Source of the DNA: an uncultured virus (IMG/VR IMGVR_UViG_3300031665_000001)
Taxonomy: Duplodnaviria; Heunggongvirae; Uroviricota; Caudoviricetes
Direction: 5' to 3' (one strand)
IMG/VR virus record: IMGVR_UViG_3300031665_000001
Length of the DNA: 64,000 nt
Position 1 is the stretch's first letter. Every line of letters starts with the position of its first letter. Below the pieces are notes generated by a model. The model was not told where the DNA came from. It did no database searches and saw nothing but the letters and a program-made list of their open reading frames with translations. The translations under genes were made by a program, and so were the position numbers. Of this stretch, positions 4,158 to 11,130 are shown in pieces.

Positions 4158-5081
4158 TTATTTTAATTTTTTTTGTTTTATTTTATTTCTTCTATCGGCA
4201 GCATCTTTAGCCATTTTTTGCTGTCTTTCTTTTTTTGCATTCGTTACTTTTATTATCTGGTCCGCAATATCCTTAGATGTCGGATTGAATACTGTTTTCA
4301 TTGGCAAATTTAGAAATGCTGATATTTTCCAAACTTCATCAAATTCAAAATCTATTTTCTTATTTAATTTATTATATACATGTGATAAAGATAAATTTAA
4401 TATTTGTGATAAATCTTTCGGTTTTTTGTTTTCCATATACAATAAGTTCGATATATATTGTTTGTCTACATTTATGTTATTCATGTTAAAACCTTCAATT
4501 AAAGATTTATTAATTATTAATTTATCTGATTCATTACTTTTTTTTAAAGATTTATTAAATTCTTTCGATATCACCTGAATTAATTCATTATCTGTTGGGC
4601 AAAATATCCGTTCAATAGGTAATTCCATATAACTACTTAATAAAATACCTTCTTTTACTGTTATCTTTGTGTCACCCCTTAATTTATCGTAAATAGATAC
4701 AATTTTTAAACCCCATAAATTACATAATTCATTGATATGTATTCCTTTTTCATTCAATAAACGCTTTAAATACTTTTGATTTAAATTGAAGTCATTATAA
4801 GAATTTTTATTATAATATTTTTCTATATTATAATCATTATAATACACTTCAAACATCATTTGTTCTGTTGGGCAAAATACATCAATTACATTAATATGTA
4901 ATTCATCTGATAATAAAATTGCTTCATTTATATAAATTAGAGTACGACGGCTTATTTTAAGATTTAACGCGTTTTCGCTTATTTCTAATCTTTCGCATAT
5001 TTTTTTCCTATTTGTAAATTCATTAGTCTTTATTAATTTGTTAATATAATGCGTATTAAAATTATATTTTCTATAAATCAC
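4158..5081 (-). CDS. transcription regulator with three tandem Cro/CI-like HTH domains
   Basis: three internal repeats N.KY...LL....L...L......Y.KL.......E.I.LS..L..P....F.PT; GTG start with AGGAGG. Confidence 0.7.
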   Translation of the reverse strand: MIYRKYNFNTHYINKLIKTNEFTNRKKICERLEISENALNLKISRRTLIYINEAILLSDELHINVIDVFCPTEQMMFEVYYNDYNIEKYYNKNSYNDFNLNQKYLKRLLNEKGIHINELCNLWGLKIVSIYDKLRGDTKITVKEGILLSSYMELPIERIFCPTDNELIQVISKEFNKSLKKSNESDKLIINKSLIEGFNMNNINVDKQYISNLLYMENKKPKDLSQILNLSLSHVYNKLNKKIDFEFDEVWKISAFLNLPMKTVFNPTSKDIADQIIKVTNAKKERQQKMAKDAADRRNKIKQKKLK

Positions 5082-5115
5082 TATTACACCTCCTATTTTT
5101 TTATTTTTATTTATA

Positions 5116-5144
5116 ATATTATAACACTTTTTACATTATGTCAA
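5116..5144 (-). promoter_or_regulatory. sigmaA-like promoter of the triple-HTH gene
   Basis: minus strand TTGACATAATGTAAAAAGTGTTATAATATT. Confidence 0.6.
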
Positions 5145-5201
5145 GTAATATACAATATAATGGAAAAAAAATAAACATAATATGTCAAATTTTACATAAC
5201 A

Positions 5202-5228
5202 ATAGACCTGTTTAGCGAACAGGTCTAT
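5202..5228 (-). terminator. terminator hairpin ending the protein/tRNA-like RNA unit
   Basis: ATAGACCTGTT-TAGCG-AACAGGTCTAT perfect 11-bp stem. Confidence 0.6.
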
Positions 5229-5458
5229 AAAAACAGTCTGTAACAAAGAGATTTACTAACAATTTTATTATATAGAAAAATCTTAATTATAACAATGCTA
5301 TTCTTGTTACAAAACCCTCAAACTACCGATTTGAGAGTTTTATCATACTTTTTGGCTTTTTTGATATTAAAACAAGGCATCCTATCCATGATGCCTTGTT
5401 ATCTGATTTTTGCCAAATCATTTTAAAATGTATATATCTTCAATGTTTAACGGCGTTT

Positions 5459-5645
5459 AATGTATTGGTTTAATTTTAAAAAGGTTTTTGCATAACCACT
5501 ATGCTATTCTTGCATATATAGGGGATTATTAATCCCCTAGTGAAAGGAACATATTAAATATATACACTATACTTGCCACAATTATTTACTTGCCAAGCAA
5601 GAAATTGGATTTGAACCAATGTGAAACCAATATTACCAATACACC
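5459..5645 (-). ncRNA. circularly permuted tRNA-like domain 2 (T arm, acceptor 3' strand, 83-nt insert, acceptor 5' strand, D arm)
   Basis: T arm ATTGG-TTCAAAT-CCAAT (5620-5604); TTCTTGC (5603-5597) pairs 7/7 with GCAAGAA (5513-5507), then TA and D arm GCAT-AGTGGTT-ATGC; closing stems GGTTT/AAACC and TGTATTGGT/ACCAATACA. Confidence 0.75.
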
Positions 5646-5705
5646 TCGATTTAAACAAATATACTATATTAAACTTTTGAGAATAACTTAAATTTAAATT
5701 TTAAT

Positions 5706-5790
5706 AGCTAATGTCTGCCATTGCATCACCACGACATTTCAAATAGTAGAATCAAAGTCGTGGAAAGGATTCGAACCTCCAAAAATAGCT
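5706..5790 (-). ncRNA. circularly permuted tRNA-like domain 1 (YrlA-like topology)
   Basis: AGCTA, T arm GGAGG-TTCGAAT-CCTTT, CCACGAC, 21-nt linker, GTCGTGG (7/7 pairing), TG, D arm ATG-CAATGGCAGA-CAT, TAGCT. Confidence 0.8.
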
Positions 5791-5821
5791 TTATTTAACT
5801 TGAGTCTTAGCTTATCTCAAA

Positions 5822-5895
5822 TGGGATCGAATGGAATTGAACCATTAACTCTAGGATTTTTTAATCCTAAGCTCTACCGATTGAGCTACCATCCC
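5822..5895 (-). tRNA. atypical tRNA with an 8-nt anticodon loop (TTAAAAAA); identity undetermined
   Basis: GGGATGG TA GCTC-AATCGGTA-GAGC T TAGGA-TTAAAAAA-TCCTA GAGTT AATGG-TTCAATT-CCATT CGATCCC A; one G:G acceptor mismatch; no encoded CCA. Confidence 0.75.
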
Positions 5896-5905
5896 ATATT
5901 AAAGT

Positions 5906-6643
5906 TTATTCAAACAAATATTTAAATATTGAATTTATATGTTTTTTTTCTACTTCAATACTATTAGCTGTTTCACGTGCCATCTTGACAGCTTTTATAA
6001 GTTTTTCAACTTTTTTTAACAATTTTTCTTTATCTGGAATCGGTATAGCACCTGATAATTTTTCAGTATTCCAGTAACCTATAATAACATCTTCATTATA
6101 TACTTCTGTCTGTGCTGGATGCTTATCTGTTGCTTCATACCTAATTAAAACTTTAGGTACTTTTTTAGTTCTATGTGTTTCAATAGGTTCAGTCTTATAT
6201 AGATTACTATTTACATCAGGTTTCCAATCCTCATTAATGTCCAATGTAGGAATAGAATTAATTATTGTTCTTATATCTATTAACTGTTTTTCTAAAAATA
6301 TGATGAATGTAGCTGGTACATGTTCAACAATAGTAACATCATCAACAACTATATCTGAAAATGCTGTCGTATTACCATAATCTTTAGTCAATATATAATC
6401 AAAAGATTCAGTCATTGACTCTATAATTAAATTAAATAAAGATTCAACATTAGCGACTACTTTTTTATTTTCATCTGCAAACTTTTCACCTTCATCGTCT
6501 AATGGTCTATATTTCTTTGTGAATCCATTAAATAAATCTGGTTTTTGAAAAGTTTTATAAATATTAGTAATAGTCTGCTGATTCCTTGCTTTTACTTCTT
6601 TTTCAATCGCAATAACTTGATTCAATTTATAAGCTTTAGACAT
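5906..6643 (-). CDS. conserved hypothetical protein (245 aa) linked to the tRNA-like RNAs
   Basis: RBS AAAGGAG; motifs KLNQVIAIEK, FNGFTKKYRPLDDEGE, VPATFIIFLEKQL, THRTKKVPK, ATDKHPAQTE, SGAIP resemble an uncharacterised bacterial/phage family (recalled, not searched). Confidence 0.9.
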   Translation of the reverse strand: MSKAYKLNQVIAIEKEVKARNQQTITNIYKTFQKPDLFNGFTKKYRPLDDEGEKFADENKKVVANVESLFNLIIESMTESFDYILTKDYGNTTAFSDIVVDDVTIVEHVPATFIIFLEKQLIDIRTIINSIPTLDINEDWKPDVNSNLYKTEPIETHRTKKVPKVLIRYEATDKHPAQTEVYNEDVIIGYWNTEKLSGAIPIPDKEKLLKKVEKLIKAVKMARETANSIEVEKKHINSIFKYLFE

Positions 6644-6745
6644 TGTTAGTAAATCTCCTTTCTATAATTTAAAACCCTGAAAATTCAGGGTTTTTAGAAA
6701 AATATTTTATATGCTATAATATAATTAGTACAAACTAATTATCTA

Positions 6746-6775
6746 CATCATAACACATGTATTACATCATGTCAA
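6746..6775 (-). promoter_or_regulatory. sigmaA-like promoter of the 245-aa gene/RNA unit
   Basis: minus strand TTGACATGATGTAATACATGTGTTATGAT (17-bp spacer). Confidence 0.6.
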
Positions 6776-6970
6776 TAAAAAATACTGGTTCGACTTTCCA
6801 GTATTTATGCAACTTATTTAAATTAAAAAAAAACTTTGAAGTATTTAAAATTTACAATTTATTATATAATACATATAGGATAAATTAAACCATATTATTA
6901 TAGTTTATATTGATATTCCAAAAAGAGAGCCAGTACCAACGGCTCTCTATAAACAGTACATTATCTTAAC

Positions 6971-7216
6971 TTACTTATCATAAAATTCATTAATAGCTGA
7001 GTTCCAGTTTGCTATATCTTCTTCGCTTGGTTTATTCGCTATTGACTGTTGGTCTTTTATTCCTAGTTTGCTTGCTACTTTCATTAAGTCAGAATAATCT
7101 TCACCAGCTTTAAAACAGTTATCAAATTTTTCCATATATTTTGCTTTAAAAGCCTCTCTTGACATCGAATTTGCATCAACTTCCATCTGGTCTAAGTTAT
7201 ATTTGTTTGTATTCAT
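6971..7216 (-). CDS. hypothetical protein
   Basis: RBS AAAGGAGGTG; open 81-aa frame. Confidence 0.75.
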   Translation of the reverse strand: MNTNKYNLDQMEVDANSMSREAFKAKYMEKFDNCFKAGEDYSDLMKVASKLGIKDQQSIANKPSEEDIANWNSAINEFYDK

Positions 7217-7272
7217 TTACAATTTCACCTCCTTTCACTTTCATTATTCATAATAAACAAAACCATACATTT

Positions 7273-7470
7273 CTATAAAGTCCCTTTGTTATCTGGGCTA
7301 TTAATTACGCCAAACCCGGTTAAACATAAAAGGATAAAGTCTATTGTGTGTTGTATAACTTCTTGTTTTATTCCTATCATTTCATATAGTCCCCATTCAC
7401 CAAGAAGTAATAATAATGCACTAGTTAGTCCAATCCATAAAACCTTACTTTTTAGTCTGTTTTGTGTCAT
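7273..7470 (-). CDS. holin (65 aa, two TM segments)
   Basis: MTQNRLKSKVLW... and GFGVINSPDNK match small Firmicute phage holins; RBS GGGTGGTG before ATG 7470. Confidence 0.85.
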   Translation of the reverse strand: MTQNRLKSKVLWIGLTSALLLLLGEWGLYEMIGIKQEVIQHTIDFILLCLTGFGVINSPDNKGTL

Positions 7471-7760
7471 AATTTCACCACCCTTTTGATAAAGTCCCCG
7501 AATCTGATTAATATCAACCGTAATCGGGGACATGAAACATGGAACATTAAACAATTATTAATCTATTGAGAGAAAAACTCTCAATTATACCTTTTATGTA
7601 CTCAATACATATATTTTTTTTAGGATATAATATGTATTGAATATTGATAATTTAAATATTGGCTACCACACCAGTATTTAATATGAATATATTTTATTTT
7701 TGCAAAAAACGTCTTCAATTGACGTAATTAGAGTCTCCTTCTACACATGGTAATTGAGTC

Positions 7761-8258
7761 AACTTGTGGGATTGTGTATTATCGGATTTCCCTTTTAAAA
7801 TTATATTGGTCCAGACAATGTTCTTTTTTTTGGAAGAACAAAATCTGATTTTACAGTGTCCTTTTTTTGGAAGGACAAAACCTGGTTTTTTTTTTTAACT
7901 TGTGGGATTGTGTATTATTGGATTTCCCACAAACCCTATAGACTCATACACTAAGCCAGGAATCTTGATCTCATAATCATTGATTTCCCGTAACCTGTTT
8001 TAAAACTATGTTGGTTCGATTTTTAGGTAGTTAGTATGAATATAAATACCGTCATACACGGTGCGTCTTGGTAATTAATGTCCCCAAGCGGAATAGACAA
8101 CTACCAAATTATGTCTACGAGTTTTACCTCCTTTTAACTTGTGGGATTGTGTATTATTGGATTTCCCACAAACCCTATAGACTCATACACTAAGCCAGGA
8201 ATCTTGATCTCATAGTCATTGATTTCCCGTAACCTGTTTTAAAACTATGTTGGTTCGA
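7761..8258 (-). repeat. two 127-bp direct repeats (7893-8019, 8132-8258; 1 mismatch) plus an internally deleted third copy (7761-7812); probable structured ncRNA
   Basis: direct comparison; non-coding; starts immediately 3' of tRNA-Thr on the minus strand. Confidence 0.85.
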
Positions 8259-8331
8259 AGCTAGTAGTTGGAATTGAACCAACAACCTACTGATTACAAA
8301 TCAGTTGCCCTACCTATTGAGCCATACCAGC
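8259..8331 (-). tRNA. trnT: tRNA-Thr(TGT)
   Basis: GCTGGTA...TACTAGC T cloverleaf; anticodon arm ACTGA-TTTGTAA-TCAGT; T loop TTCAATT; no encoded CCA. Confidence 0.92.
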
Positions 8332-8441
8332 AATTTATAATTTATCTGGGTTACTGTCCTTTTTTTAATAAGAAGTTCACCCAGATAATAGTTTTGGGAT
8401 AATCTACTAAAAAGTTTATATTACCAATTAGTAATATAAAC

Positions 8442-8470
8442 ATTATATAACACTTTTTACATTAAATCAA
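8442..8470 (-). promoter_or_regulatory. sigmaA-like promoter for tRNA-Thr/ncRNA/holin
   Basis: minus strand TTGATT-17 bp-TATAAT. Confidence 0.65.
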
Positions 8471-9242
8471 GGTATTTTTTTATTCAATGCATTAAATAAA
8501 AATTCTTCCCATGGTAATTTTGATGATGCTCTGAAATGCTTCATCCATACTTGCCAATACTCAGGTGAGATTATTTTAGCATATTCTTCTAATTTACTTA
8601 CATTATTTTTTTCTTCTTTATAATTGATACCGAAATAATCACAAATACCTTTTAATACTTCAATTGCACATTCTTGTTGATATGATAAATTCCTCATTAA
8701 ATTGGCTTCAACATGATTGCTCATGAAGCCACACTCTAGGAGTACTGCTGTCATTTTAGTTTCCCTCAATTCGTGGAATCCTGATTTATAAATAACGGTA
8801 TCTTTTTTTACTCCCCTATCCTTTAAATTAGTACCTTGTAATAATTGTTTGTGTATTGCAGTAGCTAATTTTTTACCTTCTATACTCCCATCATGATAAT
8901 ATGTTTCAATACCACCTATATTATCATCCCATTTATCACCCATCGAATTAAAATGATAAGATATATAAATATATTTTTTATATTTTCCTAAATCATATTG
9001 TACATTCGCCCTATCTGTCCTGGTTTTTAATACTGTATCTGTTCTCTCAGGACTAACATCATATGTAACAAATCCAAACTCTTTACAAGCTTGTAAGAAA
9101 ATTGTCTTAGTTGGAGTATTAAATTCATTCTCACAAATTACAGAACCATCTTCAAATTTAGGTGTCCTTTTTCCTGCAGTCTCTAAACCATCCGATGACC
9201 ATCATTACCTATGATTAAAATATCTTTTGGTAATAATGACAT
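8467..9242 (-). pseudogene. N-acetylmuramoyl-L-alanine amidase endolysin (Amidase_3) frameshifted by a 5-nt insertion at 9190-9194
   Basis: RBS and ATG at 9242 give MSLLPKDILIIGNDGH; another frame continues GLETAGKRTP...ENEFN...RTDRAN...SYHFNS...LLECGFMSN; deleting CGGAT gives one 256-aa ORF. Confidence 0.85.
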
Positions 9243-9395
9243 ATAGCATCACTTCCTTTCTTAAAATAAAATCCCTATAATACCTATTATACTAATTATA
9301 CCATTAAAACAATATGTTTTTTAAAATAAATACAGTATTAAAAAATAATATTTAAATAATGTATTTATCAGCGTTTATGTAACATACATAAAAAA

Positions 9396-9422
9396 ACTCT
9401 TGTATCAATAGATACAAGAGAT
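9396..9422 (-). terminator. terminator after the tail module
   Basis: CTCTTGTATC-AATA-GATACAAGAG followed by a T run on the minus strand. Confidence 0.7.
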
Positions 9423-9426
9423 ATTT

Positions 9427-11130
9427 TTACAATTTGATTGCCTTGATATATGATCCTTTATCAACTTGCATGGCAGTAGCATCACTTGTATTCTGTGCCC
9501 ATTGCATTTGTAAAATACATCCACCATCACCAGTTTTAATTAAAATCTTTTCATAGTGTGGCATTTCACCAGTCGCTACCGTACCCATTAAAACGGATGC
9601 AGCAAGAGCATAATTATTCATTTGTAATGCACAATCTGTATAAACTGTAGTACCTGTAGCTGCTGATATTGTAACCCTTCCGTCACTGAATACTTCATAA
9701 TCCCCACTAACAGACCAGGCGACTTTTAAATCAGGAGTAGCACTTCCAGAACTATATATTAAAACTAATTCAACTTCAAACAAACTATTAGAAGGTAATT
9801 TAATAATTAATTCATTATCATTTTGTAAAGTTGTGCTTGACGTAACTGTTTCATCATAGTATTTAACAACATTTATAGGAACACTTTTACCATCAGTTAT
9901 CAATGGTATCATGTTATTATTACTGATGGTAAAATCTGTTACAAAATAATATTGATTATTTGCACCTGTTGAAAATCCTACATCACCACTGGCAGTGGCT
10001 GAAATAGTAATAGGATATTCAGCATATACAGGTTTCATACCATCTACTTCTAATCTTGCTCTTATAACATTATCAGGTGTTTTATCTATCCACAGCATCA
10101 TTCTATCACCAGTAGCAATACTTCCAGATAATGAACCTGTGGCAACATAAGAACCTGAACCACTTACATATTCGTATATCTTCAAATCATCATGAATATC
10201 AATCCTAATATAATTAGAGGCATCAACATACCAGGTAATACTACCTCCATAAGTAGCTATTTTAGAATACATTTCGCATTTAAATGAAAATGAATTTACA
10301 TCGTTCATTATCTCTATCATGTCATTATATGATTCATCAGCATATTGAAAACCTTTTTTACCTATTTTTTTATCAAAATATACTAAAGTATCTGTATCAT
10401 TACCTATCCATGGTGATTCATCATAATTATCTGAACCATCATTTACAATAAAAGGTGATGAAACACCTGACACTTGTCTAACCATATATAATTTATTACA
10501 TATGATATATTCATTTTGAGCTGATGCTGTTGTCGCGGCATATATAGCAACAAATGTTATATCATCCCATCCACTAGGTGAACCATCAGTTCCAAAAGAA
10601 CTTTTATCAATATTGTAAAAATTCCAACCAGTTGAATAACTACAGAACTTATAATAACAATTAGAAGCATCTGTACCTACTCTTAATAGAATACTACTGA
10701 ATTTAGTACTATCTGATATATAAAATACAAATACTATATTATCATCTGAACCTTCTGCAGCACCAGAAGGATATGTTGTACAATCTACACTAGTGATTGT
10801 ATCTGTAATTTCAAGTGTTCCAGATGATGCATCTGAATCTAGCATCTTAACCCCTCCTATACCACAGATTACATCGGTATATATTACTGTTGATGCTGTT
10901 ATTGTACCAGATGTACCAAAGTCACTATGATTCTCAAAATTATGTATTTCTCTAACATTGTTTTCGATACCATAATCTAACATATTATTGGCATTTATAG
11001 AATTTGAATAATTTAATTCTTCCATTACTTTTGTTAATGTTATTTCATTTTTATTTAAATTTGTTTCGTCTAGTGCAGGAATAGTACCATTAACAAATGT
11101 ATTTTCTGTCCAATTTCTAAAGTTTGACAA
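9427..11130 (-). CDS. putative receptor-binding/tail tip protein, paralogue 2
   Basis: end of tail module; beta-rich S/T/G/D composition; colinear with 11502-13220; TTG start. Confidence 0.7.
   Translation of the reverse strand: MSNFRNWTENTFVNGTIPALDETNLNKNEITLTKVMEELNYSNSINANNMLDYGIENNVREIHNFENHSDFGTSGTITASTVIYTDVICGIGGVKMLDSDASSGTLEITDTITSVDCTTYPSGAAEGSDDNIVFVFYISDSTKFSSILLRVGTDASNCYYKFCSYSTGWNFYNIDKSSFGTDGSPSGWDDITFVAIYAATTASAQNEYIICNKLYMVRQVSGVSSPFIVNDGSDNYDESPWIGNDTDTLVYFDKKIGKKGFQYADESYNDMIEIMNDVNSFSFKCEMYSKIATYGGSITWYVDASNYIRIDIHDDLKIYEYVSGSGSYVATGSLSGSIATGDRMMLWIDKTPDNVIRARLEVDGMKPVYAEYPITISATASGDVGFSTGANNQYYFVTDFTISNNNMIPLITDGKSVPINVVKYYDETVTSSTTLQNDNELIIKLPSNSLFEVELVLIYSSGSATPDLKVAWSVSGDYEVFSDGRVTISAATGTTVYTDCALQMNNYALAASVLMGTVATGEMPHYEKILIKTGDGGCILQMQWAQNTSDATAMQVDKGSYIKAIKL

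Follow-up and report, generated by a model that had tools for sequence, protein, structure and literature searches.

A previously undescribed family of structured RNAs linked to tRNAs and tRNA-like elements in tailed phages

A 127-nt repeat starts at the base after the discriminator of a tRNA-Thr in a 64,000-nt stretch of DNA from an uncultured virus of the Caudoviricetes (IMG/VR record IMGVR_UViG_3300031665_000001; the whole stretch is called the window below). This repeat unit belongs to a previously undescribed family of structured RNAs, which is linked to tRNAs in the manner of the small RNAs rnaD and rnaC of phage T4. The explanation favoured here, with a probability of roughly 0.45, is that the unit is a new, compact phage non-coding RNA of about 120 nt, which would be cut out of a longer transcript by the tRNA-processing enzymes of the host and would act in trans.

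Genomic setting

The window has a G+C content of about 27% and carries the gene set of a tailed phage on the minus strand. Terminase, portal, protease, major head protein, tape measure protein, DNA polymerase, helicase and primase were recognised in it by PHROG matches. The terminase and the endolysin are closest to those of Bacillus, Weizmannia, Geobacillus and Clostridium phages (35-52% identity), which makes a low-GC member of the Bacillota the probable host. The RNA cluster lies between the endolysin and holin genes. Its surroundings are as follows.

8943..8467, minus strand: endolysin gene (PHROG match)
8442..8470, minus strand: predicted sigma-70-like promoter (TTGATT, 17 nt, TATAAT; 10 of 12 matches), predicted start of the RNA-cluster transcript
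8344..8386, minus strand: leader hairpin 5' of the tRNA (ATCTGGGT ... ACCCAGAT), read from the sequence
8259..8331, minus strand: tRNA-Thr(UGU) without encoded CCA (ARAGORN and Rfam, 70.3 bits)
7703..7725, minus strand: hairpin with a T run, similar to an intrinsic terminator; predicted end of the RNA-cluster transcript, upstream of the holin gene
7554..7273, minus strand: holin gene (PHROG match)

The predicted promoter (8470..8442) overlaps the end of the endolysin gene, and its sequence is kept in two related contigs, L015 and L044. At the site equivalent to the leader hairpin, L015 has CCGGGT and ACCCGG, which is a compensatory change with respect to the window. The bases right after the tRNA-Thr are TCG rather than CCA.

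Repeat units in the window

Five elements were distinguished between the tRNA-Thr and the terminator-like hairpin.

8134..8258 (127-nt repeat 8132..8258), minus strand: unit 1, structured RNA motif (repeat finder, alignment, model R1 with 157.4 bits)
8020..8131, minus strand: spacer element of 112 nt, unique, read from the sequence
7895..8019 (127-nt repeat 7893..8019), minus strand: unit 2, one base different from unit 1 (repeat finder; model R1 with 156.4 bits)
7805..7885, minus strand: two tandem hairpins with A-rich loops, 87% alike, with a sub-threshold resemblance to wcaG RNA
about 7761..7811, minus strand: truncated third unit (repeat family; partial match of model R1 at 7768-7792, 22.5 bits)

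The initial annotation had described a 127-nt unit that begins at the base after the tRNA discriminator and is present twice. ARAGORN, Rfam and the repeat finder agree with this description and place the start at 8258. According to the repeat finder, the two copies are 99% identical, and 32 nt of the 3' part of the unit occur three times (at 7761, 7897 and 8136). A third copy had been described as deleted between its two GGGAAATC motifs. The truncated copy does exist, but its deletion is 8 nt larger than the exact gap between these motifs. Unit positions 23-91 are missing from it, and with them the helices P1 and P2 and the 5' arm of P3 (see the section on the fold); the AAUACACAAUCCCACAAGUU end is kept.

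The spacer (8020..8131) opens with a Shine-Dalgarno-like GGAGG with no ORF behind it, and contains a long hairpin as well as the GUGUAUGA hairpin at 8062-8048. The latter had been pointed out as a further occurrence of a loop motif of the unit. The hairpin is indeed present, but it is not conserved: L044 has an otherwise almost identical spacer in which this third GUGUAUGA is altered. The third GUGUAUGA stands outside any conserved scheme. As for the spacer itself, it is a conserved element, found near-identical in L044 (2632-2745), there behind a tRNA(CAU). In phages of the L045 type, a shorter sequence that resembles the spacer (GGAGGUAA ... AUUACCAAG) stands before the tRNA-like element.

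An A run separates unit 2 from the tandem hairpins (7885..7805). These hairpins match the wcaG RNA model over its full length with 28.8 bits, below the gathering score of 42 (E = 0.021 in 6 kb, 0.0018 in 0.5 kb), and this is taken as a resemblance only. A single hairpin similar to the 7805-7885 pair is present in the leader of L015 and L044. The minimum free energy of the array is weakly better than that of shuffled sequences (z = -1.8; 6 of 100 shuffles fold as well).

The possibility that the duplication is an assembly artefact was checked. The nearest assembly is a 46.5-kb IMG/VR record (G001), which has the same layout (1285/1303 identity) and different SNPs in each copy. In the DNA run X1, the unitig of the 127-nt unit has a depth of 24.4 compared with 7.6-9.8 in the flanks, and a 172-nt unitig joins the end of the unit, the spacer and the start of the unit. 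Run X2, from another study, carries indels like those of G001. The duplication is considered genuine because of the SNPs proper to each copy of G001, the depth in X1 and the bridging unitig.

Relatives and copy number

Relatives were gathered by exact-pattern scans and by searches with the flanking proteins. The unit was found in 11 records, the window included, which belong to four sequence lineages.

Lineage i: the window, G001, contigs L011 and L009
Lineage ii: L044, a 70-kb MAG contig; L015 and L040, broken contigs from one sample that are identical to parts of L044
Lineage iii: L045 and L050
Lineage iv: L048 and L057

The copy number varies. Two near-identical units and a stump are present in the window and G001, one unit and a stump in L009, two diverged units and a short remnant in L044, and one unit each in L045, L048, L050 and L057. 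One full unit is thus found in five of the eight records with the whole cluster visible, and the conserved object is therefore the unit and not the array. The earlier idea of a repeated array as the functional feature is not borne out by these counts. The tandem copies of the window may provide a higher dosage or be a by-product of recombination, and do not seem to be required.

Further searches did not extend the family. With blastn against INPHARED (50,697 phage records), only the tRNA was matched and no relative was found. An exact-pattern scan of metagenomes gave six matches, all unrelated. The pattern was narrow and would miss the L045 and L048 variants, and the family may therefore be larger than 11 records. 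In viral scans with looser patterns, four of the eight loci in one scan and L060 in another were rejected as chance matches. Model R1 found no further copies in 16 sources, five whole records and the T4 tRNA region.

The records of L045 and L048 (G003 and G004) are single-unit phages of about 38 kb with direct terminal repeats, compared with 64 kb for the window. The RNA cluster together with the holin (68-69% identity) seems to be a module common to different phage types.

Fold of the unit and covariation

Six pairing elements are proposed for the unit. Their positions in unit 1 are given below.

8255-8252 with 8234-8231, minus strand: H0 (RNAalifold; invariant)
8249-8244 with 8216-8211, minus strand: PK1, pseudoknot (compensatory change)
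8229-8221 with 8203-8196, minus strand: P1 (compensatory changes, RNAalifold)
8195-8191 with 8185-8181, minus strand: P2 (RNAalifold)
8171-8164 with 8146-8139, minus strand: P3 (RNAalifold, compensatory change)
8190-8186 with 8153-8149, minus strand: PK2, candidate kissing pair (complementarity, invariant)

The structure was checked on two alignments, one made with MAFFT (eight units) and one model-based (11 units, 10 of them distinct), the latter being fitted to the nested helices and not to the pseudoknots. Standard pairs fill 97.9% of the cells in the MAFFT alignment and 97.2% of 360 cells for the 10 distinct units. When the 3' partners were slid by 1-3 columns as a control, these values fell to 29-43% over both alignments and to 30.5-42.2% for the 10 distinct units. 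Both sides of a pair have changed in six pairs of the MAFFT alignment and in 8 of 36 pairs of the model-based one, and with four lineages only, these compensatory changes represent few independent events.

In the model-based alignment, the changes on both sides are concentrated in P1 (unit positions 30-38 with 56-63), where they affect five of the eight pairs. One each falls in PK1, in P3 and in the closing pair of P2. In P3 (90-95 with 113-118), a G-C pair is replaced by A-U in unit A of L044, and one wobble occurs. P2 (64-68 with 74-78) shows mostly one-sided variation with the pairing always kept; the change at its closing pair is seen in one row only, where the alignment of L044 unit A is poor across P2. 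PK1 joins the 5' segment CAUAGU (10-15) to its complement ACUAUG (43-48) in the loop of P1. The corresponding segments of L045 and L050 are CACAGU and ACUGUG, a compensatory change, and unit 2 of the window has a G-U at another PK1 position. In the fold model, PK1 can be regarded as in effect a contact between the H0 loop and the P1 loop. As unit B of L044 carries an inserted tRNA-like element at this place, its row is out of register in H0 and PK1.

Moreover, 26 G-U cells of the model-based alignment would read as A-C mismatches on the opposite strand. The RNA is therefore read from the minus strand, as are the tRNA and the neighbouring genes. RNAalifold recovers H0, P1, P2 and P3 unprompted; it thereby predicts independently both hairpins that the initial annotation had named. 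PK2 and H0 never vary, and covariation gives neither any support. The fold of P1, P3 and PK1 is well supported by the compensatory changes, which, together with about 97% pairing across the lineages, argue for selection on the RNA structure.

Rfam 15 contains no match to the unit (E <= 10 on 5000-11000, on 7750-8262 and on four relatives; gathering scores on the whole window). Only tRNAs and the sub-threshold wcaG match were returned. With helices and one pseudoknot that covary and no Rfam match, the earlier description of the unit as a structured, undescribed non-coding RNA holds. Three other identities were tried and rejected. The unit is not a tRNA or tRNA pseudogene, as neither ARAGORN nor Rfam finds a tRNA cloverleaf on the units or the spacer. 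Nor does it encode a small protein: the short frames that open with ATG vary from lineage to lineage, and the substitutions compensate for one another in RNA pairing. An attP site or integration-site duplication was discarded as well, since the tRNA is complete and the unit is no duplicate of a tRNA.

tRNA and tRNA-like neighbours

Full units follow a tRNA or a tRNA-like element, and the proposed link to tRNA 3' ends is upheld by the relatives. The upstream elements all lack an encoded CCA. In the window, unit 1 stands directly behind the tRNA-Thr; unit 2 sits 5 nt after the spacer element, which no tool calls tRNA-like. L044 and L015 share the leader hairpin and promoter with the window, but a tRNA-Gln(UUG) comes next there, and then the unit. 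Unit B of L044 lies behind a tRNA-like element whose T stem has 6 bp and whose 'anticodon' loop has 4 nt, and a weak tRNA-like element (29.6 bits) is inserted between the 5' segment of this unit and the remainder.

In L045, L048, L050 and L057, the unit is placed between a tRNA-like element that ARAGORN leaves uncalled and a 57-nt mini tRNA-like element. The latter combines an acceptor-like stem of 7 bp with a canonical T arm, and the sequence between the two is too short for D and anticodon arms. The upstream element of L057 is tRNA-like with a 36-nt insert (31.8 bits). That of L045, L048 and L050, a longer tRNA-like element, is called neither by ARAGORN nor by Rfam at E <= 1; the ARAGORN check of this type was run on the same contigs under the ids L041 and L042.

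Aberrant tRNA-like elements are located in L044 (2745-2830 and 2856-2927), L045 (about 1245-1410 and 1553-1610), L057 (1613-1709) and L016/L017 (3033-3105). The types comprise a 4-nt 'anticodon' loop, an insert of at least 36 nt, the 57-nt acceptor stem with T arm, and an element to which ARAGORN assigns the 2-base anticodon 'ag'. Such elements are unlikely to decode, and therefore resemble processing signals kept for the unit. Because they look kept for the unit, an excised small RNA is ranked above an accessory for tRNA maturation.

The identity of the tRNA at one site swaps between close relatives, with Thr(UGU) in the window (8259-8386, minus strand) and Gln(UUG) in L015 (3040-3160) and L044 (2261-2331). 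This swap sits between the conserved leader hairpin and the unit, and resembles a cassette-like tRNA replacement. In a second tRNA of the window (5821-5896, minus strand), the anticodon loop is 8 nt long and includes six consecutive A, and ARAGORN gives the anticodon as 'aaaa' (56 bits). Its counterpart in L044 (5124-5196) and L040 has a 7-nt loop and is called tRNA-Phe(AAA). The 8-nt loop may reflect a length polymorphism of the A run or possibly a four-base decoder; no unit lies behind that tRNA.

Proposed maturation and mode of action

In Bacillus subtilis, RNase Z cuts CCA-less tRNA precursors after the discriminator, and an acceptor stem with a T arm is sufficient for RNase P. The unit would be co-transcribed with tRNAs or tRNA-like elements from the predicted promoter, which lies between the genes of endolysin and holin. 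Its 5' end would arise by cleavage of the RNase Z type behind the discriminator of the upstream tRNA or tRNA-like element, which has no CCA. The 3' end would be set by a downstream tRNA-like element, or by further trimming at the predicted terminator. The four hairpins (H0, P1, P2 and P3) would then be tied by two intramolecular loop-loop contacts, one between the 5' segment and the P1 loop and one between the P2 and P3 loops. The resulting particle is expected to be stable and may use its invariant loops and junctions to act in trans, most likely as a protein-binding decoy.

Transcription was looked at in one metatranscriptome run (X8). It contains a single 192-nt contig that corresponds to 7920-8111 with 100% identity, i.e., most of unit 2 and most of the spacer; the flanking 650 bases are absent, and the uncovered parts of the 851-nt stretch carry no evidential weight. 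The contig has no strand or end information. It is a weak hint of expression, because the unitig is of low depth (2.8) and the library may contain DNA carry-over.

Comparison with known tRNA-linked RNAs

The closest parallel in layout is found in T4. There, rnaD (species 2 stable RNA, 119 nt) starts one base after a tRNA-Arg, and rnaC (species 1 stable RNA, 139 nt) comes six bases behind rnaD. According to an extract of PMC3014915, both are small RNAs of unknown role. Likewise, the unit is a small RNA right behind a tRNA in a phage tRNA cluster. The likeness appears to be one of logic, namely the genomic layout and the presumed maturation by tRNA enzymes, and not of ancestry. Model R1 has no match in rnaC or rnaD with the filters off, and a three-way alignment shows nothing convincing. 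In contrast to T4, the window encodes proteins that resemble those of Bacillota phages, and the fold with two kissing-loop contacts is specific to the unit.

RNAs with tRNA-like punctuation are also known outside phages, for instance the mascRNA-type elements. In plant mitochondria, t-elements are non-decoding tRNA-like structures that mark RNA ends for RNase P and RNase Z (PMC1920247, extract). Whereas t-elements flank mRNAs, the phage tRNA-like elements flank a conserved structured RNA, and the corresponding processing is here a proposal by analogy.

Small stable RNAs are an old observation in phage tRNA clusters, with T4 rnaC and rnaD as the classic case, and the unit would stand beside these two as a second, unrelated example. 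The tRNA-like elements maintained next to it, which are unlikely to take part in decoding, point to tRNA-style punctuation as a general route to phage small RNAs. Furthermore, its compact and well-supported fold is suited to direct experiments, a ribozyme screen and structure determination. The wider importance is unproven, because the family is small and comes from uncultured phages only.

A possible self-cleaving ribozyme

The unit could alternatively be a new self-cleaving ribozyme or another cis-acting processing module, which cuts its own 5' end and thereby makes the 3' end of the upstream tRNA. This is unlikely, although several features are in line with it. The units lie 0-1 nt from tRNA 3' ends in the window, in unit A of L044, in L045 and in L057, and their size, pseudoknot and many invariant unpaired bases are typical of small ribozymes. 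A precedent exists in the theta ribozymes, HDV-like ribozymes reported in phages of Bacillota and Bacteroidota that cleave within +/-5 nt of phage tRNA 3' ends (PMC10879173, extract). Like them, the unit is structured and begins where a phage tRNA ends.

The resemblance does not extend to the structure. No ribozyme family matches, lax filters included, and the covariance models of the HDV type gave no match at E <= 10 on 5000-11000 or 7750-8262. HDV-like ribozymes are built as a nested double pseudoknot in which J4/2 carries the catalytic C. The elements of this fold are named P1, P1.1, P2, P3, P4 and J4/2 (PMC10879173, extract); the unit, in contrast, has four hairpins, and the 3' strand of its pseudoknot is inside the P1 loop. 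Theta ribozymes begin with G1, whereas the unit, adjacent to the tRNA at 0-1 nt, has U, UU or CU as its first bases. It is also longer, at about 120 nt. Moreover, lineages differ by 1 nt in the spacing of the discriminator and the invariant AACC, and a cut at a fixed position would therefore miss the exact tRNA ends. The upstream element of the L045 type is not recognisable as a working tRNA, and other tRNAs of these phages have no unit (5821-5896 in the window and the tRNA(CAU) of L044).

Possible control of holin expression

In each of the four lineages, the RNA cluster immediately precedes the holin gene, though the gene upstream of the cluster differs. The cluster could be a cis-acting leader of the holin transcript that sets holin expression or the timing of lysis, for example by antitermination or by an mRNA stability that depends on processing. 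Such a leader is a reasonable alternative, though quite unlikely. L045 has a strong promoter (11 of 12 matches plus TG) before the cluster, and no terminator was found there before the holin gene. In the window, a predicted terminator separates the cluster from the holin gene, and an element that governs readthrough could control it. Nevertheless, linkage among related phages reflects shared ancestry and is not independent evidence; it may simply be inherited. The tRNA-like elements, the terminator and a separate conserved hairpin stand between the units and the holin start, and no ligand-binding or antiterminator family was matched.

Loop complementarity and possible multimers or sponges

The loop GUGUA(U) of P2 is complementary to (A)UACAC of P3, as the initial annotation had observed. 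GUGUA and UACAC, the latter within a 17-nt loop, are invariant in all 10 distinct units, while the stems beneath them change. A covariation check thus sees a constraint on the loop sequences and, as they do not vary, zero covariation. Complementarity of 6 bp between the two loops arose in 754 of 20000 composition-preserving shuffles and is therefore, taken alone, marginally beyond chance; the corresponding figure for PK1 is 858 of 20000. P2 and P3 are neighbours, about 9 nt apart. Most simply, their loops would meet within one molecule and form a compact particle. PK2 is read as intramolecular because PK1 is intramolecular and covaries, and because P2 and P3 are adjacent.

Alternatively, GUGUAU and AUACAC may pair between copies or molecules and build a multimer, or the loops may sponge complementary RNA or mimic a type III antitoxin. 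The complementarity and invariance just described would suit such roles, and the sites are equal in number in the window (three of GUGUAUGA and three of AAUACAC). The phi29 pRNA assembles into a ring by loop-loop pairing. GOLLD and ROOL, which are phage-linked or bacterial, form homo-oligomers (PMC12286853, extract), and RNAs of less than 200 nt can form cages and filaments (bioRxiv 10.64898/2026.07.01.735769, extract). However, the unit is much smaller than GOLLD and ROOL, which have hundreds of nucleotides, and pRNA, GOLLD and ROOL gave no Rfam match at the gathering score or E <= 10. Unlike those of pRNA, the loops of the unit can pair within one unit, and there is no link to packaging genes. 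A multimer or sponge would be hard to reconcile with the single full unit that suffices in most complete clusters and with the altered third GUGUAUGA of L044. The PK1 contact inside one unit makes an intramolecular PK2 the simpler choice. Targets for the loops were sought within the window, and neither the motifs nor their complementary sites are enriched there.

Type III antitoxins of the ToxI kind consist of head-to-tail repeats of about 35-45 nt next to the gene of an endoribonuclease toxin. Nothing points to the mimicry of such an antitoxin that had been suggested earlier: the units have 127 nt, a unique spacer of 112 nt separates them, short tandem repeats are missing, most relatives have one full unit, and the neighbours are endolysin and holin with no toxin gene nearby. 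Taken together, pairing between units, sponging and antitoxin mimicry are distinctly improbable. A broader claim would be that the unit represents a new class of small RNA, either a self-cleaving ribozyme behind tRNAs or tRNA-like elements that is not HDV-like, or an oligomer of about 120-nt units linked by the GUGUAU and AUACAC loops late in infection; this is regarded as unlikely.

Finally, it is very improbable that the units are functionless repeats (a recombination scar, a mobile-element relic or a decayed tRNA) or that the P3 hairpin mimics a CRISPR repeat: truncated copies exist (7811..7761 in the window and the short remnant of L044), the copy number differs between near-identical phages and the tRNA content around the units is shuffled, but the compensatory changes and the pairing kept across lineages oppose decay, ARAGORN and the Rfam tRNA model leave the unit uncalled, and an exact-pattern scan for the P3 hairpin in 185,579 species genomes gave one phage-like contig and no CRISPR array.

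Other conserved elements around the cluster

Two further elements were noticed at the borders of the cluster in the relatives. The sequence TAAGGCAA is present in three to four copies just upstream of the strong promoter of the RNA cluster in L045 (1005-1060), and at the same place in L048 and L057. These copies are a putative binding site of a regulator. On the other side, an 8-bp G+C-rich hairpin lies in the 5' leader of the holin gene, just before the holin start (about 7494-7531 in the window, minus strand). All lineages retain this hairpin; L048 shows a compensatory change in it and L045 a wobble. It may control the translation of the holin.
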